A stretch of 63,693 nucleotides of DNA, taken from a virus. The stretch spans positions 1 to 63,693 of the IMG/VR virus record IMGVR_UViG_3300018954_000002; one strand, given 5' to 3'. Of the stretch, positions 5,474-63,693 are shown in pieces (positions within the stretch are counted from its first letter, which is position 1; each line of letters starts with the position of its first letter). The position numbers were made by a program, and so were the translations under genes. The notes under the pieces are model-generated. The model saw only the letters and a program-made list of their open reading frames with translations, was not told where the DNA came from and made no database searches.

Positions 5474-5585
5474 GGTGCGGGTCCTCCGGTTCGTGCGATG
5501 ATCGATGGGTTCATGGTCGTCGGGAGCCGATCGGGAACGGACCGGCGCGGCGGGTGACCCGGAAGCACCCCGCCGCGCCGGTCTC

Positions 5586-36096: not shown

Positions 36097-36585
36097 TCAA
36101 GCCTTCGGCTTCCCGGTCCGACCCTGCGGCGGCTGCGTGCGCGCACCGCTGCGCAGCGACTCGACGTCCACCCGGGCCGACCCGCCGGTCGGGGCCGCCG
36201 GCTCGTCGCCGATGACGTCGCGGACGTCCTGCGAGTTGTCGTAGGCCGCCTCCACGGCTGCGCGCCGCTTCTCGGCCGCGTTCGTGAGGTCGCTCATCTC
36301 CGCTCCGATCCGCTTCTCTGCCGCGATGGTGAGCTGTTCGTTCGAGTCGTGCGGCGGGATGTTGCGGGGGTCGCTGCCGTCGAACGGCACCTTCGGGTTG
36401 GTGTTGTCGTCGATCGTCGGGTCGCTCGTGCCGTGCGGCTGCACCGGCACGTGCCCGGAGTTGTCGGTGACGACGTTGTTCGGCTGCGGCTCGGGCTGCG
36501 CGCCCTCGATGTCGCTGGCCGTGGGCGGCGGCGCCGTCTCTTCCTTCGGCGCCGCGGTCGACTTGCTGTCCTTCTGCTCAGCCAT
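36097..36585 (-). CDS. Hypothetical Pro/Asp-rich protein (162 aa)
   Basis: ATG at 36585. Confidence 0.5.
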   Translation of the reverse strand: MAEQKDSKSTAAPKEETAPPPTASDIEGAQPEPQPNNVVTDNSGHVPVQPHGTSDPTIDDNTNPKVPFDGSDPRNIPPHDSNEQLTIAAEKRIGAEMSDLTNAAEKRRAAVEAAYDNSQDVRDVIGDEPAAPTGGSARVDVESLRSGARTQPPQGRTGKPKA

Positions 36586-37150
36586 GAGTGGCCGCTTCCC
36601 TTCCGTGAACGTGCACGAGTCCGTATCCGTCCGGGTCCACCGACCCGACGAGTTCCTTTCCACCGCAGGGACGCAGGCCCGCCCAGAAGCGCCGGACCCC
36701 CGGGTACCGGAAGTTGGCGATGCCGCGCACGAGTACGAGCCCGCCGGGGCGGACCATCGGCGCGAACCGCTGGTAGTCCGCCCGGATCCCGTGCTCGGTA
36801 TCCCGGCCGCCGAGCACCAGCACGTCCACCGCCCGCCCGCCGATCAGGTCGCCGACCCGCCCGTACGGCACGGGCTGGCGCGGATCGCCCACGACCACCG
36901 AGACGGACGTCGGCCACCGGTCGCCGGTGAACCCGTCCTCCGGAGCCGGGTCGCGGTCGGCCAGCGCGACGAGTTCCGCGCCGGTCGACCACCACGCCCA
37001 CCACACGGCGGGCTCCGACCGGATGTCCACGATCAACCTCGGGTGCAGGGTCTCGACCACGTCGAGGGCCGCCCACAGCTCGTGCGGGTTGATCCCGGCG
37101 CAGCGACGCCCCGCCTCAAGGGCGATGTCGCGAGACAGCTCCGCGGTCAT
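36578..37150 (-). CDS. Class I SAM-methyltransferase-fold (Methyltransf_24/CmcI-like) protein
   Basis: DVLVLGGRDTEHGIRADYQRFAPMVRPGGLVLVRGI resembles the family core. The Gly-rich motif I is degenerate (LIVDIRSEPAVWW). Confidence 0.45.
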   Translation of the reverse strand: MTAELSRDIALEAGRRCAGINPHELWAALDVVETLHPRLIVDIRSEPAVWWAWWSTGAELVALADRDPAPEDGFTGDRWPTSVSVVVGDPRQPVPYGRVGDLIGGRAVDVLVLGGRDTEHGIRADYQRFAPMVRPGGLVLVRGIANFRYPGVRRFWAGLRPCGGKELVGSVDPDGYGLVHVHGREAATHG

Positions 37151-47121: not shown

Positions 47122-47388
47122 ATGCCGCTGAACAACCCGCACCACCGCGCACCCGAGATCGACCGCGACCCGCTGACCGACTCCGGCATCCACCGCACCC
47201 TCGGCACCCGCGTACGCCTGCACGTGGCCGGGGCCGACCCCATCGAGGTCGGGCTACTCGAACTGAGCGGAGTCACGGCGTGGTGGCAGATCAGTATGCG
47301 GGTGCGCGAGCAGATGCCTATCGAGGTCGAAGGGCGCATGTCGTTCGCCGCGGGCGTGGTGCAGTGGGTCGAGCGGATCGAGAGCTGA
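47122..47388 (+). CDS. Hypothetical protein (88 aa)
   Basis: Protein-like ORF. Confidence 0.55.
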   Translation: MPLNNPHHRAPEIDRDPLTDSGIHRTLGTRVRLHVAGADPIEVGLLELSGVTAWWQISMRVREQMPIEVEGRMSFAAGVVQWVERIES

Positions 47389-47394
47389 CATGGT

Positions 47395-47428
47395 GATGGC
47401 CACCCCGGGCGCAACCAGGGTGGCCATC
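47395..47428. terminator. Hairpin between convergent genes
   Basis: GATGGCCACCC-12 nt-GGGTGGCCATC. Confidence 0.6.
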
Positions 47429-47517
47429 GAGGGCCCTAGCAAGACCAACCACTCCGCCGCTGCGCGAGGATTGCAGCCCTCCGCCTGCGGCCATGTCAGC
47501 CTAGCACCGCGGCCCGG

Positions 47518-47985
47518 TCAGGGCGCGTAGACGCTGTTCGTCTGGTCGTTCATGTACGCCGAGAAGTCACCCCAGATGCCCGGCCTCGGGACCGTCGTGC
47601 CCTTGCCGGTGCAGCCCCAGCCGTCGAAGAACGTGATGTAGTCGTTCGTCCCGGCGGTGGTCCCGCGGTGGTAGTAGGACGTCGCCCGGTTCGCGAACGT
47701 CGAGCCATCGTCGGCGGGGTGGTCGGCGTTGAGGTCCATGCACCTGATGCCCGCGCCGTCGCTGTGCTGGTAGATCGTGGCGTGGAGCCGCTGCCACCGC
47801 ACCCCCGTACCGCCGGAGAACTGGTACAGGCAGACGGCGCCGCTGTCGCACGCCCACGCCAGGCTCGACGCCTCGTAGCGCACCCACCCGCCCGACGCCT
47901 GCGCCTGGACCGGTATGGCCAGCGTGACGACGGAGAGCAGGGCGGCGAGGGCCGAGGCGAGAGCGGCGCGGATGCGAGGGGTCAT
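47518..47985 (-). CDS. Secreted protein, peptidase-inhibitor I36 / beta-gamma-crystallin-like
   Basis: Signal peptide MTPRIRAALASALAALLSVVTLAIPVQAQA. ACDSGAVCLYQFSGGTG ... ITFFDGWGCTGKG. Confidence 0.6.
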   Translation of the reverse strand: MTPRIRAALASALAALLSVVTLAIPVQAQASGGWVRYEASSLAWACDSGAVCLYQFSGGTGVRWQRLHATIYQHSDGAGIRCMDLNADHPADDGSTFANRATSYYHRGTTAGTNDYITFFDGWGCTGKGTTVPRPGIWGDFSAYMNDQTNSVYAP

Positions 47986-53801: not shown

Positions 53802-54146
53802 GCCCCTCGGAATGCCGCCGGGAAACCACTCGCGGGACGCCGGCCGCCGCGCGCTGGCACGTGCGCCGCGGGACTGATTGCACAACCGGTCGCACACCGG
53901 GCACGGATTCGGTGGCTCGCCGGGACCCATCGTGCCGTGCGCCGGGCGCAGGTTCGAGAGATCGTCCACACCCGGGATCAGTCGGCCCGCCACGTCGCGC
54001 GGCCACAGCCGGTGCGGGACGATGTGGTCCGCCGTCCGGGCGCCGTGGTGCCCGCAGATGCCGCAGATGTCGTTCGAGGCTAGTAGAAGGGCCCGATTCC
54101 GCCGGTACGGGCGGCTACCGGTGCCGGAGCGCCCCGATCCGGTCAC
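53799..54146 (-). CDS. HNH endonuclease (115 aa)
   Basis: GTGA overlap with the fibre gene stop. CGICGHHGARTADHIVPHRLWP...NLRPAHG...CPVCDRLCN. Confidence 0.7.
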   Translation of the reverse strand: MTGSGRSGTGSRPYRRNRALLLASNDICGICGHHGARTADHIVPHRLWPRDVAGRLIPGVDDLSNLRPAHGTMGPGEPPNPCPVCDRLCNQSRGARASARRPASREWFPGGIPRG

Positions 54147-57100
54147 TCGACCGACGAGTAGCGCAGTGAGCCGGAGGGTTCGGCGTACGCCACCGATGTC
54201 CGGCCCGGCTCGACCGTCGACCGGGCCACGGTCACCGAGTCGGCCACCACGAAGTCGACCACGCCGGTGAGCATCTCGGCCGACGCGAGCAGGGTCACGA
54301 CCGCGGCCAACGCCGCGCCGGTGCTGCGCATCTGCGCTCCGCCCGCGGACAGGGACACCGTGACGGTCAGGACGGTGGAGATGGGGGCGGATCTGCCGGT
54401 CGTGGTCGTGAACGTGGCCGAAATCGCCAGCACGGCACCTGCGGCAGGCCCGCGTGTCGCCGCGGCAGACAGCGAGACGGTGATGGCGAGCGTGGCCGTG
54501 GCCAGCACGGGCGGCGTGTCCGTGGTCGCGTCGGCCGCGAGCACCGCGGTGGCCGCGAGAGACGCGGCGGCGAACAGGGACTCCACGGCGGCGGCGGCCA
54601 CCGTCGCGGTCACCAGCAAGGCGGCCGCCGCGGCGCGTTGCGGCGTGACCGCGGCGGACAGCGTGGCGACGGCGGCGAGCGCGGCACTGGCCACCTGAGC
54701 CAGCGTTGCGGCCGTCGTCAGGGTCGCGGTGACGTTCAGGGCGGCGATCGCAGGCGAATCGCCGAGCACGGCGCCTGCCGAGAGCGCCGCAGTGGCCGAC
54801 AGCGCCGCATCCACCGGAGCGGACCTGCCGCCCGTGGCCGCCAGGGTGGCGGCCACGGCGAGGGACGCCTGCGCGGACAGCGTCCCGACCGCCGCAGCCG
54901 CGAGCGTCGCCGTGGCCGCGAGAGACGCGACGGCCGTCCTCGACACCGGAGCGGTCGCGGACAGCGTGACCGTCACCGGCAGGACGCCGGCCAGCGGGCG
55001 GGAGACGGGCGTGGCGGTCGCCAGGGTGGCCGTGACGGGCAGAACCGCCGCAGCAGACCGGGCGGCCGGCGCCGTGGACGCGAATGTGGCCGTCACCGGC
55101 AGAGCGGCGTCCGCCGTGTCGGTGACGGTGGCCGCAGTGGACAGGGTCGCCGTGACGGCAAGGGCGGGTCCGGCCACCGCGGTCCGGTCGGCGGCTGCCG
55201 AGAAGGTCGCCGTCGCTGCCAGCGCCGCCGAGGACGTGGCGGGGGTGGAGACGTCCGCGGCGGCTTCGAAGGTCGCTTCGACGGCGAGGTCGGTGGCGAA
55301 CGTCATCGGGATCAGGCTGGCACCGGCCGCCAGGGTCGCGGTGACGGCGAGGCTGGCGACGGCCGACTCGACGATCGCCGTGCCGAACGACAGGGGCATC
55401 TGCACCCGTACGATGCCGTCGTCGGTGGTGATTCCCTGGTACGTGACGCTGATTGTGGTGCCGTCGTCGGCGAAGTCGAGCCAGCCGTACGCCCTGAGGA
55501 CCGCCGGGTAGGTGTCGTACGTGCCGAACGAGTAAGTGATGCTGCTCATGTCGAGAGAACCCTGCTGGAACGGGGCGCCGCACGCCTGCGGGATGCCGAC
55601 GGCGCCGGGTGTCGACCCGTCGTCGGCGGCCAGGGCGTGGGTGTCGCCGAAGATCACGAAGACCTTCCCGGCGACGCCGGCCGTGTTGTTGATGAAGTTG
55701 GTCATCTCCTGGAATTCCGTGGCGAACGACGACCAGCGGTCGCCCGACGTGCCGCCCTCGGTGCGCCACGCCATGTTCCCGCAGATGACTTTGAGCGGCT
55801 CGGTCTCCTGCAGCCGCGCCTTGAGCCACGCTTTCTGTTCGACGCCCAACATCGATTTCGACGACGAGTCCGGGTCCAGATAGTTGTTGCGCTGGCTGCG
55901 CGGGTCGATCTGAATGAACCGGACCCGGCCGATCACCCAGGTCTGCCACGCCCCCCGACCGTCGGTGGCCGGCAGGTTGTAGTGCGGAATCACGTTGCGG
56001 TACGCCGCGGCGACGTCGGCGCCCCTGACGTTGTTCTTGTCGCTGCCGTTTCCTCCCCAGTCGTGGTTATCCCACATGTACGTTATGGGGATTTCCGACA
56101 ACATCGGGGCGAACAGCGGTTGATCCAGGGTCTGGAACCACTGGTCGTAGACGCCTTGCAGGGTGTCGCTGGCCCCCCAGTCCTCGTAGTGGATGTCGCC
56201 CATGTGGATCAGGCGCCGAGCCTTGCCGGAGCCGGCCGCGACGCTGCCTGTCTTCTGCCTGATCGCCTCGAACGTATTCGTCGAGAGCACGGTGAACTGA
56301 CACGACCCGAAGGCCACCGAGAAGTTCGCCGCCGTACCGGGCGTGGGGTCGGTGGTGAACGACCCGAACCCCTCGCTGTTGATCGTCCCGTCGGCCTCGA
56401 CGCCGTAGTAGTACAACGTGTTCGGGCTGAGGCCGGTGACGGACAGCTTCGCGAGGCCCTGCGTGCCGGCCGCGACCGCCGTGCCGAACACCGGCGAGGT
56501 CAGCAGGTCCGCCGTGGTGCTCACCTTGAGCCGGGCGGTGCTCGTCAGGCCGGAGAAGGCGTACGTCACCGTGCAGCCGCTCGACGACACGTTGCCGCAC
56601 ACGGGGCCGAGAACCACCTGTGGCGGCGGGTTGCTGGTCTGCCCGTACGGCACCAGCTCGAAGATGAACCACACCGCGGTCGACGAGCTGACCGCGCCGG
56701 AGCCGTTGGTGAGCGAGACCGGCAGCTGCCGAACCAGGCCATTACTGTCGTGGATCGAGGTGGACGGGTTGATGCCCGTCGGGGCGGTTCCGGGCTTCGC
56801 CGCCGCCCTCGTGGTGTATCCGGTGGGCGGATTCCAGGTCGATCCGGACCGGTCGCCGAAACTGACCCCGATCCACGGCAGTGTCGAGCCGGGGGTGATC
56901 GTGGACGTGGTGTGCAGCGCGGTCGACGCGCCGGACTCCCACCCCGAGGCGTACGACCCGACCGGGGTCGTCTCCGAGCACCCGGCGTAGGCCATGGCGG
57001 CGAGCGCCCACTCCACCGCCGATGAGCAGGTGAACGTCAACGCCGTGGCGTCGCCGGTGCGCCAGATGCGCCACAGCCACGCCGCGCGGTGGTCGTTCGG

Positions 57101-57445
57101 CGAGCCGGTGTCCGAGATCGGGCCGACCTGCGTCCACGTGCCCTGATTCGGGGTGATCGTGGCGGCGCTGATACCCCCGGCGTGCGCGTCCACGGTGATC
57201 GCCACCATGACGAGGTCGCCGTCCTGCGGCGCGATGGTCAGCGTGGGGGAGGTGAGCGCCGTGGCGTCGGAGACGGTGGCCGCGGTCCACCCGGCGGGCT
57301 GCCGGACGAAGATGGGCGAGCGGACCGCGACGATCTGCGAGGGCACCGGGTACGGGACGGCCGCCTCGCCGTACCCGAGCGTCGTCCACCGGTTTGACTG
57401 GCCGACGTACGGACTGGCCGCGCCACCGCTCTGGTAGATCGGCAC
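54143..57445 (-). CDS. 1100-aa tail-fibre-like protein with a PhoD-like metallophosphoesterase domain and 18 C-terminal repeats of 20 aa
   Basis: VTGLSPNTLYYYGV (PhoD_N-like), FGSCQ, HMGDIHYEDW, WDNHDWGGN, FGDTHA. The C-terminal 366 aa have a 20-residue period around (L/A)xVTATL. Confidence 0.75.
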   Translation of the reverse strand: MPIYQSGGAASPYVGQSNRWTTLGYGEAAVPYPVPSQIVAVRSPIFVRQPAGWTAATVSDATALTSPTLTIAPQDGDLVMVAITVDAHAGGISAATITPNQGTWTQVGPISDTGSPNDHRAAWLWRIWRTGDATALTFTCSSAVEWALAAMAYAGCSETTPVGSYASGWESGASTALHTTSTITPGSTLPWIGVSFGDRSGSTWNPPTGYTTRAAAKPGTAPTGINPSTSIHDSNGLVRQLPVSLTNGSGAVSSSTAVWFIFELVPYGQTSNPPPQVVLGPVCGNVSSSGCTVTYAFSGLTSTARLKVSTTADLLTSPVFGTAVAAGTQGLAKLSVTGLSPNTLYYYGVEADGTINSEGFGSFTTDPTPGTAANFSVAFGSCQFTVLSTNTFEAIRQKTGSVAAGSGKARRLIHMGDIHYEDWGASDTLQGVYDQWFQTLDQPLFAPMLSEIPITYMWDNHDWGGNGSDKNNVRGADVAAAYRNVIPHYNLPATDGRGAWQTWVIGRVRFIQIDPRSQRNNYLDPDSSSKSMLGVEQKAWLKARLQETEPLKVICGNMAWRTEGGTSGDRWSSFATEFQEMTNFINNTAGVAGKVFVIFGDTHALAADDGSTPGAVGIPQACGAPFQQGSLDMSSITYSFGTYDTYPAVLRAYGWLDFADDGTTISVTYQGITTDDGIVRVQMPLSFGTAIVESAVASLAVTATLAAGASLIPMTFATDLAVEATFEAAADVSTPATSSAALAATATFSAAADRTAVAGPALAVTATLSTAATVTDTADAALPVTATFASTAPAARSAAAVLPVTATLATATPVSRPLAGVLPVTVTLSATAPVSRTAVASLAATATLAAAAVGTLSAQASLAVAATLAATGGRSAPVDAALSATAALSAGAVLGDSPAIAALNVTATLTTAATLAQVASAALAAVATLSAAVTPQRAAAAALLVTATVAAAAVESLFAAASLAATAVLAADATTDTPPVLATATLAITVSLSAAATRGPAAGAVLAISATFTTTTGRSAPISTVLTVTVSLSAGGAQMRSTGAALAAVVTLLASAEMLTGVVDFVVADSVTVARSTVEPGRTSVAYAEPSGSLRYSSVE

Positions 57446-57884: not shown

Positions 57885-58235
57885 TCAGCCTCCAGCCCGG
57901 CGCAGGGTCGCCGCCGCCACGTCGAGTTCGGTCGCTGCGTTGCGCTCGGCCAGTTCGGCAACGTGCACAGCGTTCATCAGCACCTCGCCCGAGTCGGACC
58001 CGGGCTCGTCATCCGGTCGACCGGCCCGTTCCCACTCGGCCAGTCGGGCGCGGCAGGCGGACAGGGCGCGGGCGGCGTCGGCGTGACGCACCCTCGCTTC
58101 GAGCACCTCGCGCTGGAGCGGCTCGATCATCTCGGGTGCCCGCAGATCCTCGGTGCCCACCACCGTGCGGGCGGCCGGGCCGCGGCCGAGGGCGGGCCAC
58201 TCCAGGACGGCCTCGGGGCCGTCCGGCCCGGTCAT
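57885..58235 (-). CDS. Hypothetical protein (116 aa)
   Basis: ATGA overlap at 58235. Confidence 0.5.
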   Translation of the reverse strand: MTGPDGPEAVLEWPALGRGPAARTVVGTEDLRAPEMIEPLQREVLEARVRHADAARALSACRARLAEWERAGRPDDEPGSDSGEVLMNAVHVAELAERNAATELDVAAATLRRAGG

Positions 58236-58624
58236 GCCGCCAGCGGCGCGAGAGACACGCTCATCGACGCGAGGGTGAGGGTGTCCCCGGTGTTGACGGT
58301 CTTGGGCGTGGTGAGCTGCACCGAGAAGTAGAACGTACCGGCCGAGCTCGCGCCCCAGTCGGAGATGTCGGTGACAACCTCGCCGTTGGTGCCGGCCCAC
58401 GCCGTCCACGACGGGGTGTTATTGATCGACTTCGAGCCGGCCGACGCGGCGGCCCACGTCGCGGACGGGCGGGTGGTCACCGACGAGACGTTCGCGGTGC
58501 CGTTGGCGCCGGGGTCGCCGGTGTGCAGACCGATGAACGATCCGGCCGGGGTAGTGAAGGCGGTACCGCCGAGCAGGTTCAGCCAGGCGTTGGCCAGGTT
58601 GACCGCAGAGAGACCCCGAGCCAT
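58232..58624 (-). CDS. Putative minor tail / fibre-associated protein (130 aa)
   Basis: LNLLGGTAFTTPAGSFIGLHTGDPGANG...GDTLTLASMSVSL resembles a conserved phage tail-associated family. Confidence 0.45.
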   Translation of the reverse strand: MARGLSAVNLANAWLNLLGGTAFTTPAGSFIGLHTGDPGANGTANVSSVTTRPSATWAAASAGSKSINNTPSWTAWAGTNGEVVTDISDWGASSAGTFYFSVQLTTPKTVNTGDTLTLASMSVSLAPLAA

Positions 58625-60507: not shown

Positions 60508-60900
60508 TCACGCATCGCGGAGTCCGGCGTTCAGTCGGGCCACGACCTCAGGGTGCAGCGTCACGGGGATGGGCGCCGTCGAGTCGTACACGCGGCACAG
60601 GTCCCGCCACATCTGTGCGACGGATCGGGTGCCGACGCCGGGACTCCACCGGCACTCACGGTGGTCCCCGAAGTTCTCGCCGGCGACCACCACGGGCGCG
60701 CGGCTCCCGGGAGCGCCCCGGCCACCGCCGGGCGGCTCCAGTGCGGTCATCAGTTCGGCTGCGGTCACCTCGGCGCTGCGCCGACCGTCCGGGTGGGTCA
60801 CCGTCCAGGCGTCCCGGCCGCGCGCCTTGCGGGCCAGCAACCCCCGTTCGATGGCGGTCGTGCGGACGTCGTAGTCGGTTGCTGCGTGGTCACTCGTCAT
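60508..60900 (-). CDS. Hypothetical protein (130 aa)
   Basis: Protein-like ORF directly downstream of the palindrome cluster. Confidence 0.55.
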   Translation of the reverse strand: MTSDHAATDYDVRTTAIERGLLARKARGRDAWTVTHPDGRRSAEVTAAELMTALEPPGGGRGAPGSRAPVVVAGENFGDHRECRWSPGVGTRSVAQMWRDLCRVYDSTAPIPVTLHPEVVARLNAGLRDA

Positions 60901-60924
60901 GGGTCAAGACCTTCCGGGAGCCAA

Positions 60925-61097
60925 GGGGTGGACAAATTTTGGTTAAGGGGTGGAGGGGTGGACATTGTCCACCCCTACCCCCGAGGCATGCCGCGCGTAC
61001 GGTCAGAATAAGTTGTTGTTATTAGGACATACCGACCCTGTTTTTGGCGGAATCCGGGGGTTAGGGGTGGACACGTGTCCACCCCTCCACCCCTTAA
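60925..61097. repeat. Symmetric cluster of GGGGTGGA(CA) repeats and palindromes around an AT-rich core (candidate origin or operator)
   Basis: Single copy at 60925-60934. Perfect palindromes at 60955-60975 and 61064-61085. 22-bp inverted arms TTAAGGGGTGGAGGGGTGGACA (60943-60964) and its complement (61076-61097). AT-rich core at 61005-61035. Confidence 0.85.
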
Positions 61098-62497
61098 TCA
61101 AGATCACTCAGCACGTACGTAACGGTCGGCTGACCGCGGTACTCCGAGGGCTTTCCGATCACGTCTCCGGACATCAGCAGGAGATCAACGGCAGCATCGA
61201 AGTACTGCCGGTCCCTCGATGCCAGGGCCGAGCGCAACGGACCGCGTTGCATGCCGTCCGCGCCCACCCGGGCGAGCCTCTTGCGGATCGAGCGCAACAC
61301 CCGCTGCACGTCCGCCTCGCCGACCTTCTCGGTGACGATGATCGCCCGCTCGGCCTCGGCGACCGCCACGCGGGCGTTCGCCTCCCGCTGCACCGCCGAG
61401 AGCGCCTCGACGCACACGGTGCGCGTTGCGTCGGACACCGCCATGACGACGCCGGCAAGGCGCCAATCGTCCTCGCTGGCCGCCGTACGCCCGTCCAGGA
61501 TGGCCAGCGCGCACGCCACCTTGACGCGGGTCAGCACGGCGTGACTGTCGAGGGCGTCGCCGACGTCGCGGTTACGGTCCTGCCGTGCCTGCCGGATGGT
61601 CCGCTCGGCCACCTCCGGGATGTCCATGAAGATCCGTGACTGCCGCTTGAGCTCGACTGTCGGGCACTCGTTCCAGTCCGGCGGTCGCCACAACATCGGC
61701 GGCGGCGTGGCCGGCAGGTCGTCGATGTCCGGGGCGTCGCGGTCGCTGACCGGCAGCCACACGAACCGCTGTGGCGTGCCGCCGTCCGCGTCGCCGAGCA
61801 GCGCGGCCGACCGGCGCGGCTGGATGCCGGCCCACAGGCACATCCGGTACCGGTGCTCCGGCACCATCATCCGTTTCGCCTCGTCCACGTAGAAGAACCC
61901 GAGCTGCTCGCCCATCGCGGCCTGCCGCAGCTGCCCGGTCAGGGTGGACGCCTGCCGGTTCGCCAGCGCGGCGAGGTTGTCGATCTCCGGGATCTCCACG
62001 AGCGCAGCGTGGTTGTACATCTTCGGCGGGTCGCCGCGCTTGCCCGGCCGCATGAACATGTGCGACAGGCCCTCGCCGCTGCCGAGCGGCGCCGTGCGGA
62101 ACGACGTCTCCCGCTCGCCGAGGTCGAGCACCTCCCCGGCGACGCCCGCCGCCGCCCCCTTCCCGCTGCCAGACGGGCCCACGAGCCCGATGAACAGATT
62201 CAGACTCGCCGCCGTGCCGATGACCGGCGGGATCTGCACGAACGGCGGCGTCGCGGCGACCACACGGGTGAGCACCGAGCCGAACACCGCCCACGGCCCG
62301 GACATCCGGGACCGGGCGTAAGTGCGGATGTGCTCCAGAACCGGACGCTCCGTCCAGAAGTCGCCCGGCTTCGCCTCCTGCCGCTCGTCCTTGGTGATGG
62401 CGACCTGATCCCATCCCTCGGGCGGCTCGCGCCAGATGAGGTCTTCCCAGTCGTCTTCGTCGGGATGCCCCGGCACGACCGGGAGGTCCCCCGCCAT
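61094..62497 (-). CDS. DUF3987-like P-loop NTPase (putative replicative helicase or initiator)
   Basis: 467 aa from the ATG at 62497. Walker A GLVGPSGSGKGA, FFYVDEAKRM, GTPQRFVWLPV. Confidence 0.55.
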   Translation of the reverse strand: MAGDLPVVPGHPDEDDWEDLIWREPPEGWDQVAITKDERQEAKPGDFWTERPVLEHIRTYARSRMSGPWAVFGSVLTRVVAATPPFVQIPPVIGTAASLNLFIGLVGPSGSGKGAAAGVAGEVLDLGERETSFRTAPLGSGEGLSHMFMRPGKRGDPPKMYNHAALVEIPEIDNLAALANRQASTLTGQLRQAAMGEQLGFFYVDEAKRMMVPEHRYRMCLWAGIQPRRSAALLGDADGGTPQRFVWLPVSDRDAPDIDDLPATPPPMLWRPPDWNECPTVELKRQSRIFMDIPEVAERTIRQARQDRNRDVGDALDSHAVLTRVKVACALAILDGRTAASEDDWRLAGVVMAVSDATRTVCVEALSAVQREANARVAVAEAERAIIVTEKVGEADVQRVLRSIRKRLARVGADGMQRGPLRSALASRDRQYFDAAVDLLLMSGDVIGKPSEYRGQPTVTYVLSDLD

Positions 62498-62907
62498 CAC
62501 GGAGCCTCGGCGGTGCCCGGCTCGACGACGGCAGGCCATTCGACGTCCGGGTCGGGCATCTCGCCTACTCGGACCACGTTGCCGGCCTCGTCGACGCCAG
62601 TGGCGCCGCGCGCCGGGATCGGCCGCGGCGGGCGCGCGGCGTCGATCGCACGCTGACGTTCTGCTCCGGCCTCGATGGCGGCCAGTCGCTCGCGGTACCG
62701 CTGCTCGGCGGTGCGCTTCACGATCGGCTCGCCGGCCCACCGGACGATGTCCTCGGACATCTCCAGCGCGAGCGACGCGCCGGAGCGGAAGGCGAGGGCG
62801 AGGAGGTACGCCACCTCTGAGCGGTTGAACGTCTCCCGCTCGTTGAGCTGCCGCTGCACTACGCACCCGGAGCACCCGGGGCAGTCCGTGGCCAGGTGGA
62901 TCGTCAT
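62497..62907 (-). CDS. Hypothetical protein with an N-terminal Cys cluster (136 aa)
   Basis: MTIHLATDCPGCSGCVV... ATGA overlap upstream. Confidence 0.55.
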   Translation of the reverse strand: MTIHLATDCPGCSGCVVQRQLNERETFNRSEVAYLLALAFRSGASLALEMSEDIVRWAGEPIVKRTAEQRYRERLAAIEAGAERQRAIDAARPPRPIPARGATGVDEAGNVVRVGEMPDPDVEWPAVVEPGTAEAP

Positions 62908-63134
62908 GAGGCCACCCTCCGGGCGCTGCCGACGACCCTGTCGGCCATGTATTTGCGCAGTTCCTCGCGGGGGTAGCGGATGGAGGACCCGTGGCCGTCG
63001 CCGAGGCGGGCGTAAGGTGGGCCGCTGCCGCGCTTGCGCCACTCGAACAGCGTGCGCGGTTGGACCTGGAGCACCTCGCCGACTTGCTCGACGGTCATCA
63101 TCGGCGGGTACGCGATCAATGGGTCGTCGGTCAT
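62904..63134 (-). CDS. Excisionase/MerR-type HTH DNA-binding protein (76 aa)
   Basis: MMTVEQVGEVLQVQPRTLFEWRKRGSGPPYARLG. Confidence 0.65.
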   Translation of the reverse strand: MTDDPLIAYPPMMTVEQVGEVLQVQPRTLFEWRKRGSGPPYARLGDGHGSSIRYPREELRKYMADRVVGSARRVAS

Positions 63135-63538: not shown

Positions 63539-63693
63539 GAGGACGACGCGGGGGTTCCCTCCCGCTCCTCGATCCAGACCTCTTCGTCCGGATACATCTC
63601 CTCGGCCATGTACCGCGTGTCCGGGCACATCTCCGCGCCCCGGTGGTTGACTCCCTCGAAGTGCGTGCTCGCGGCCCACTCCGGATGCCGCTC
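63535..63693 (-). CDS. 3' part of the junction-spanning CDS (same gene as 1..163)
   Basis: The frame is continuous from the ATG at 163 through the 127-bp overlap to the TGA at 63537-63535. Confidence 0.6.
   Translation of the reverse strand, partial: ERHPEWAASTHFEGVNHRGAEMCPDTRYMAEEMYPDEEVWIEEREGTPASSS
63567..63693. repeat. Terminal overlap identical to 1..127
   Basis: Exact repeat, read directly from the sequence. Confidence 0.95.

Follow-up and report, generated by a model that had tools for sequence, protein, structure and literature searches.

A repeat element beside an MCM-like ATPase gene as the probable replication origin of an actinobacterial phage

Results

We analysed a viral DNA of 63,693 nucleotides (IMG/VR virus record IMGVR_UViG_3300018954_000002, positions 1-63,693; this whole stretch is called here the window) and focused on a cluster of short repeats at positions 60925-61097. 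The repeat element makes up the entire intergenic gap between two minus-strand genes, one coding for a 467-aa ATPase (61094-62497) and the other, downstream of the element, for a 130-aa open reading frame (ORF) of unknown function (60508-60900). It is composed of seven copies of an 8-10-bp repeat, GGGGTGGA[CA], arranged as half-site, palindrome, low-GC core, palindrome and half-site, with one extra copy. Read along the minus strand and counted from the ATPase stop, the copies were located at -1(+), 7(+) and 23(-), then, beyond the core, at 117(+), 132(-) and 140(-), with the solitary one at 162(-). Each side of the core carries an outer half-site and a perfect palindrome in a mirror-symmetric manner, and the centres of the two palindromes are 109.5 bp apart.

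On the ATPase side, the proximal perfect palindrome GGGGTGGACAC-GTGTCCACCCC (61064-61085) consists of two inverted copies of the repeat, and the outer arm (61076-61097) is made of the inner half of this palindrome, the half-site TCCACCCC and TTAA. The TTAA (61094-61097) overlaps the TAA stop codon of the ATPase gene (61094-61096, minus strand), and the overlap of the right arm with the stop codon, claimed in the original prediction, was thereby confirmed. The low-GC core (60976-61063), the proposed DNA-unwinding element, is followed on its other side by the distal perfect palindrome GGGGTGGACA-T-TGTCCACCCC (60955-60975), found both by direct reading and by the repeat search, and by the distal outer half-site, which reads TTAA and GGGGTGGA (60943-60954). 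The half-site and the adjacent half of the distal palindrome form a tandem GGGGTGGA-GGGGTGGACA at 60947-60964. The inverted outer arms (60943-60964 and 61076-61097) are perfect over 22 bp, and in the repeat search they extended to 29 nt at 93% complementarity. The solitary seventh copy, GGGGTGGACA (60925-60934), lies outside any palindrome, about 25 nt upstream of the start codon of the next gene; it has an equivalent in five related loci (L004, L008, L014, L027 and L045). Direct reading of positions 60600-61400 placed the single repeats, the tandem, both palindromes and the 22-bp arms exactly where they had been proposed.

The clustering of the repeats is not accidental. Across the 63,693 bases of the window, the exact 10-mer GGGGTGGACA was found five times, in each case within 60925-61085. 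The 8-mer GGGGTGGA was observed 12 times in comparison to 3.2 +/- 1.9 expected, with seven of the 12 copies in the element, and no other 220-nt stretch of the genome exceeded four copies of any 8-mer.

The stretches with the lowest GC content in the genome started at 61002-61005 in the core, with 30% GC over 30 nt, 35% over 40 nt and 50% over 100 nt. The claim that this is the most AT-rich patch of the genome was therefore correct at these three sizes; at 60 nt, however, the core tied with two other sites for the lowest GC.

As single-stranded DNA, the whole 160-nt region was predicted to fold into a long hairpin (-56.6 kcal/mol, z -8.2), and both palindromes were predicted to form stable hairpins in the RNA of the transcribed strand (-31.8 and -34.3 kcal/mol, z -3.7 and -2.7). 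The proximal palindrome gives a 10-bp hairpin in minus-strand RNA with no U-tract behind it. A consensus scan of the region detected neither a sigma-70-like promoter nor a terminator composed of a hairpin and a U-tract, and no T-run follows either hairpin. No Rfam family reached its threshold for the element. Positions 60939-61101 matched MIR7724, a family of plant microRNA precursors, with 38-44 bits, where the threshold is 100; this match is spurious and results from the long-hairpin shape of the element. The hexamer ATCAAG (reverse complement CTTGAT) adjoins the element at 61097-61102 of the window and at 5548-5560 of the related locus L001.

The AlphaFold2 model of the adjacent ATPase had a pLDDT of 86.5. 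In a Foldseek search against the PDB, its best matches were MCM2-7 and archaeal MCM (E about 1e-7, TM 0.38-0.41), and against viral models (BFVD) the nearest neighbours were DUF3987 and primase-helicase proteins. The C-terminal domain (residues ~390-467, encoded at 61097-61330) was also modelled alone as the last 78 residues, with a pLDDT of 91.9, and matched winged-helix DNA-binding domains only (TMq up to 0.74), among them TFIIIC tauB, the MarR, PadR and HxlR regulators, TubR and the winged-helix domain of Pol III. The protein is thus a candidate initiator/helicase, predicted to have an MCM-like AAA+ fold and a C-terminal winged helix.

At the level of sequence, the ATPase scored 16.8 bits against DUF3987 (PF13148) in Pfam, where the cut-off is 27, and its only other match, to AAA_lid_2, was also below the threshold. 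Since two more distant homologues, P0105 and P0117, carry PF13148 and the BFVD neighbours are DUF3987 proteins, the ATPase is best described as a divergent relative of the DUF3987 family and not as a formal member. ATPases of the DUF3987 family were earlier predicted to be helicases of mobile elements (PMC5862659). The PHROGs matches, phrog_28894 and phrog_11515 ("DNA polymerase/primase"), covered only the C-terminal halves of those families. No NCBIfam family matched the ATPase, and a sequence-profile search of the PDB returned nothing significant. We found at least 653 homologues, most of which are about 450-470 aa long; a few, of about 810 aa, have an N-terminal primase-polymerase (Prim-Pol) domain (PF09250).

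For the conservation analysis we used about 160 loci encoding relatives of the ATPase (32-86% identity) drawn from collections of viral, metagenomic and GTDB genomes, including those of Mycobacterium, Gordonia, Rhodococcus, Nocardia, Micromonospora, Promicromonospora, Leucobacter and others. At least four copies of one exact 8-mer were present within 220 nt past the ATPase stop in 90 of the 122 non-identical loci (74%), in comparison to 20 of 2977 control windows (0.7%) taken from these loci. The repeat words were diverse, with 54 distinct top 8-mers among 92 loci, for example GGGGTGGA, GGGGTGTA, GGTAGGAC, AGCCCTGG, TGGTGACG and GTAGTACG. The commonest word, GGGTGGAC, was found in 17 of 61 registered loci. 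The strict ++-|+-- layout (→→←, low-GC core, →←←) was observed in 32 of the 92 loci and mirror symmetry in 69 of them, and in 65 of 66 related loci the GC content between the palindromes was below the average of the locus. The sequence of the core was not conserved between distant relatives.

The centre-to-centre distances between palindromes clustered at about 96, 108-112, 117-122, 129-135 and 142-143 bp, with empty gaps in between (66 loci, which are not independent of each other). The best-fitting period of 11-12 bp is poorly defined and comes from the same non-independent samples. The clusters are about one helical turn apart, which suggests that phasing is constrained.

The same arrangement was found in cultured phages after genes annotated as "DNA primase/polymerase": in the Gordonia phages BetterKatz (gp70, site at 47294-47561, repeat TTTGCTGG) and Tarzan (gp54, 36533-36805, CGTGGACA) and in Mycobacterium phage DS6A (gp85, 55559-55826, GTAGGAC). 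In all three the element follows an ATPase form fused to a Prim-Pol domain. In Tarzan, gene 55, annotated as "hypothetical protein" (NC_079143.1, 36533-36805; L169:2715-2987), coincides with five direct and then four inverted copies of CGTGGACA, and is probably not a gene. An exact search for the palindromes in the viral collection, in which the window itself is not included, gave no match; a looser pattern search returned only L001/L003, a relative, and L002, a low-complexity match that is unrelated and has no ATPase.

The ATPase gene is the only one consistently linked to the element. Upstream of it, the window encodes a 136-aa ORF and a 76-aa HTH_17 (excisionase-like) protein; we do not regard these as conserved partners, because their homologues were detectable in only 3-4 of the 92 loci. 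Homologues of the downstream ORFs were found in at most one of 79 loci, and the 130-aa ORF of the window is likewise not a conserved partner. Where a downstream ORF could be identified, it was on the same strand in 34 cases and on the opposite strand in 5.

Comparison of related loci also indicated that the repeats change together. Position 9 of the repeat is occupied, uniformly in every copy, by C in the window and in L164 and L167 and by G in L166 and L004. The change includes the solitary copy, and since this copy is outside any palindrome, a hairpin constraint cannot explain the concerted change. In L166 (5404-5586), both outer half-sites were switched in mirror symmetry to GCCCTGTA ... 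TACAGGGC, and the inner palindromes kept GGGGTGGAGA, which suggests that the arms were homogenised against each other or selected as a pair. Among close relatives, the identity of the intergenic region was 71-83%, in comparison to 60-63% at four-fold degenerate sites of the adjacent gene, and the element would thus appear to be under purifying selection. Within the core, a GC-rich block of 22 nt (60987-61008) was invariant among the window, L164, L166 and L004; it reads GCCGCGCGTACGGTCAGAATAA on the plus strand and TTATTCTGACCGTACGCGCGGC on the gene strand. The block was absent from the 50%-identical relative L001, and it might serve for priming or as a further site of binding.

Divergence of the repeats was associated more closely with that of the C-terminal region of the ATPase (partial Mantel 0.20, p=0.002, with the core accounted for) than with that of its core (0.12, p=0.01, for the reverse). 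Per-column mutual information between residues of the protein and bases of the repeat was mildly enriched in the C-terminal third, with 14-15% vs 5-8% of columns in the top decile, and this signal is confounded by phylogeny. The best co-varying columns repeatedly included residues 422-430, with which the putative recognition helix begins. Twelve residues separate the proteins with a C-type repeat from those with a G-type repeat, and six of them lie within residues 401-467.

With regard to the genome as a whole, positions 1-127 and 63567-63693 of the window are an exact direct overlap of 127 bp, as is usually seen when an assembly with k=127 yields a circular contig. The window is therefore a circular assembly of ~63.57 kb (about 63,566 bp), with a GC content of about 70%; its ends are arbitrary, so that the nearness of the element to one of them has no meaning. 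On the upstream side, across the assembly junction, a DNA methylase and a homologue of the beta-clamp (DnaN-like, 637-2286) are encoded, and elsewhere in the genome an ERF recombinase and a GH25 lysin. In the window (62497-63134, minus strand) and in its close relatives L164, L166 and L167, the gene for HTH_17 (72-76 aa) is followed by an ORF of 108-140 aa overlapping the ATPase start, and then by the ATPase gene; this order was not detected in distant loci. It is reminiscent of the transcriptionally coupled orfA-repAM pair of pMEA300, an actinomycete integrative and conjugative element (AICE). An 1100-aa ORF (54143-57445, minus strand) has a long C-terminal run of Ala/Thr-rich near-repeats, with motifs like ...ATLAAxA... 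and ...VTATL..., and a Gp80-like head or fibre gene (58232-58624) is located in the same stretch.

A tRNA scan found no tRNA genes, leaving an attachment site of the tRNA type unsupported, and a nucleotide search of phages found no close relative of the window. No match was obtained in the window by tblastn with the Prim-Pol halves of the fused relatives, and no primase or polymerase was found in Pfam and PHROGs scans of about 30 ORFs. The phage thus appears to lack a primase of its own, within the sensitivity of BLAST and Pfam. The initial statement that no polymerase or primase is encoded is consistent with these checks, which are not an exhaustive proof.

Discussion

We propose that the element at 60925-61097 is probably the cognate replication origin of an actinobacterial phage and that it is served by the adjacent ATPase, a conclusion drawn from sequence, modelled folds and analogy with known systems. 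An origin had originally been suggested because repeats flank an AT-rich unwinding element next to a helicase-like gene. That suggestion gained support from the conservation of the gene-element pair, with diverging repeat words, at about 90 loci of actinobacterial phages and prophages, and from the MCM-like AAA+ fold with a winged helix, together with the match to the Rep/ori layout of staphylococcal pathogenicity islands (SaPIs; PMC9371898). We directly observed the anatomy of the sequence, the non-random clustering of the repeats, the conservation of the ATPase gene with the element despite the changing words, and the predicted fold; binding, melting and origin firing are what we infer from this anatomy, from the conserved linkage and from the predicted folds.

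In the proposed mechanism, the C-terminal winged helix of the ATPase would bind the repeats, and two ATPase oligomers would assemble in opposite orientation, with the low-GC core between them. The AT-rich core would then melt, and the MCM-like AAA+ rings would load themselves as the replicative helicase. No Prim-Pol domain was detected in the genome, and host enzymes would therefore have to carry out priming and synthesis. The clamp homologue of the phage (637-2286) might take part, and the host machinery might, as was speculated at the outset, be recruited through it.

The location of the element between co-directional genes is also what would be expected if it were used for transcriptional control only, with the proximal palindrome terminating an early or replication operon, and the distal palindrome and the solitary copy being operators for the ATPase or another regulator. 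Such control would fit the stable hairpins predicted for the two palindromes in RNA of the transcribed strand, the downstream ORFs that are mostly on the same strand (34 vs 5) and the solitary copy about 25 nt upstream of the start codon of the next gene; in addition, a review of AICEs raises a possible regulatory role for the RepAM binding site (PMC2440964). However, neither a sigma-70-like promoter nor a hairpin with a U-tract was detected in the region, and the downstream genes are not conserved together with the element. Moreover, a terminator needs no outer half-sites, no mirror symmetry over ~110 bp, no low-GC centre and no base change in all copies, including the one outside any hairpin. 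We therefore consider purely transcriptional control unlikely; a terminator or operator function can coexist with the origin as a secondary role. It is more doubtful still, and in our view quite improbable, that the repeats are degenerate DnaA boxes and that the origin is opened by host DnaA rather than by the phage ATPase. We compared the repeat word TTGTCCACC with TTGTCCACA, which we take to be the actinobacterial DnaA-box consensus, and against this assumed consensus eight of nine positions matched at 60927-60935 (-) and 60965-60973 (+), both of which read TTGTCCACC; the commonest repeat word of the related loci, GGGTGGAC, contains GTCCAC. Only two of the seven copies reach eight of nine positions, though, and the window is not enriched in such matches (7 vs 6.0 expected). 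DnaA boxes are, furthermore, highly conserved in bacteria, yet the words of the related loci vary widely (AGCCCTGG, TGGTGACG, TTTGCTGG, GTAGTACG).

The long inverted arms bounded by TTAA, the long hairpin predicted for the 160-nt region and the sub-threshold matches to a hairpin-shaped Rfam family might point to a mobile element resembling a miniature inverted-repeat transposable element, with terminal inverted repeats of 22-29 bp and TTAA flanks, or to a gene for a structured small RNA, placed by chance beside the ATPase gene. Such an element would hardly keep its place at the ATPase stop in about 90 loci whose words diverge with the locus, and here it exists in one copy in the genome, with no copy detached from an ATPase gene in the collection scans. 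No Rfam threshold was reached and the core is not conserved among distant relatives, so we assign this explanation a very small probability. An equally slight chance is given to a double-strand origin of rolling-circle replication, as proposed for RepAM of pMEA300, with a CTTGAT-like nick site (ATCAAG, 61097-61102, plus strand) and flanking 8-bp repeats. The CTTGAT motif is directly next to the first half-site in the window and to the element in L001, and the pMEA300-type hairpins hold a pC194-like CTTGAT flanked by 8-bp inverted repeats (PMC2440964). In the closest relatives, however, the motif is not conserved and reads CATGAT or CATGGT, and in the window it is outside the hairpin. The adjacent protein has a predicted AAA+ helicase fold, with no other domain in the Pfam scan, and 63.6 kb would be large for a replicon relying on the rolling circle only.

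Several observations weigh against the proposed origin. About a quarter of the related loci have fewer than four exact copies of a repeat word. The 77%-identical relative L167 has a collapsed element, composed of a half-site, one palindrome and a half-site, and lacks an AT-rich core; L167 either can do without the core, or its contig represents a defective variant. The collapsed element (L167:5414-5460) reads GGGGTGGA-TTTAA-GGGGTGGACA|TGTCCACCCC-TCCACCCC, as expected from recombination between the two palindromes. The invariant GC-rich block of 22 nt does not seem to be explained by a pure unwinding role of the core. Cumulative GC skew, suggested at the outset as a check, had its peak near 12-13 kb and its minimum near 46-47 kb, roughly at the coding-strand switches of a rough gene map, and no turning point at 61 kb; it turned out to be uninformative. 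Finally, the co-variation signals between protein and repeats are modest and confounded by phylogeny, and are thus suggestive and supportive rather than decisive.

Beyond the origin proposed for this phage, the ATPases may tentatively be viewed as a large class of actinobacterial MCM-like self-loading initiator-helicases with dozens of repeat words, a rigid geometry, quantised spacing and arms that evolve in concert, although we hold this wider view to be rather less likely than its opposite. The quantised spacing (about 96, 110, 120, 131 and 143 bp) could reflect a need for two oligomers to be opposed, in helical phase, over the unwinding element, and the arms possibly co-evolve by hairpin- or cruciform-templated conversion. 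If this wider view were true, the class would offer an orthogonal set of replicons for mycobacteria, Gordonia and actinomycetes, as well as a bacterial model of double-hexamer loading.

Replication origins of actinobacterial phages are mostly unmapped, and in cultured phages the ATPase gene is annotated only as "DNA primase/polymerase" or "AAA-ATPase". The module described here gives a candidate origin for many phages and prophages, including the Mycobacterium tuberculosis phage DS6A and the Gordonia phages BetterKatz and Tarzan, and suggests a concrete role for a family known only by its likeness to a domain of unknown function. Our literature searches on DUF3987 origins, DS6A origins and RepAM found no study describing such a gene-plus-repeat module and none tying DUF3987 to an origin. 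The gene and its site, about 1.6 kb together, are candidate compact replicons with naturally differing specificities, which could serve in vectors for high-GC Gram-positive bacteria. The self-loading helicase design of the SaPI type would, in addition, be extended to another phylum and to another ATPase family.

The closest functional match to the proposed module is the Rep/ori system of SaPIs, with which it shares architectural features but no sequence homology. In SaPIs, iterons are located immediately downstream of rep around an AT-rich centre, with at least two iterons per side in opposite directions, and Rep is a superfamily 3 or superfamily 6 (MCM class) helicase that reads the iterons with a C-terminal winged helix, with no separate loader identified; the SaPIbov1-type Rep belongs to helicase superfamily 6, a class that includes MCM helicases (PMC9371898). 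Likewise, the repeats of the window begin at the stop codon of the putative initiator, directly downstream of its reading frame, and are laid out as ++-|+-- around the lowest-GC patch of the genome, on both sides and in opposite orientation. The candidate initiator has an MCM-like AAA+ domain and a C-terminal winged helix, here at the level of the predicted fold only. In SaPIs the specificity differs between elements, as it presumably does here, and in both systems the primase is either fused or separate. In contrast, no homology to SaPI Rep was found for the ATPase, which matched only DUF3987 and AAA_lid_2 below the threshold in Pfam and did not retrieve SaPI Rep in the PDB profile search; a Staphylococcus genomic-island protein belongs to a different family, DUF927 (PMC5862659). 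The systems also differ in that the repeats of the window are 8-10 bp long and form half-sites and perfect palindromes, whereas SaPIs have sets of 5-6-bp iterons, and in that the present element comes from a full-size phage of high-GC Actinobacteria and not from a satellite.

RepAM of pMEA300 was shown to bind multiple identical 8-bp repeats, which are found in a region able to form a hairpin, at the 3' end of the gene that encodes RepAM itself (PMC2440964). It is defined by DUF3631 (PF12307; PMC3218068), is co-transcribed with a small upstream ORF and sometimes paired with a Prim-Pol, and its homologues were reported in mycobacterial prophages (PMC2440964, PMC3218068). The window resembles this system in having multiple identical 8-bp repeats, capable of forming hairpins, at the 3' end of the presumed rep gene. 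However, the RepAM repeats are inside the coding sequence, whereas those of the window start at the stop codon. Rolling-circle replication from CTTGAT was proposed for RepAM, and CTTGAT is not conserved at the element studied here. The ATPase also differs in showing no match to PF12307 at E <= 0.01, and this domain was absent from the precomputed Pfam domains of 120 homologues; a search of plasmid proteins gave two distant matches only, neither of them a named RepAM.

Satellite phage P4 encodes alpha, a primase-helicase whose C-terminal domain binds 8-bp origin repeats, both direct and inverted; P4 requires a second, distant repeat cluster (crr), and alpha carries its own primase domain. In the window, on the other hand, there is no second repeat cluster, and the ATPase has no primase domain, although its fused relatives have one. 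The iteron-containing theta plasmid origins (RepA, pi, TrfA; PMC4980987) also have repeats of an element-encoded initiator beside an AT-rich unwinding element. Their iterons are, however, longer (about 17-22 bp) and form a tandem of direct repeats to one side of this unwinding element, while the repeats of the window are 8-10 bp long, inverted and mirror-symmetric. Furthermore, plasmid initiators of the Rep_3/RepA type are not helicases and need the host DnaB to be loaded, whereas the putative initiator of the window has a predicted AAA+ fold and looks like a helicase itself. The design proposed here, an initiator-helicase with an adjacent cognate origin, is thus already known, and the phage module would be a new example of it in an uncharacterised and widespread actinobacterial family.

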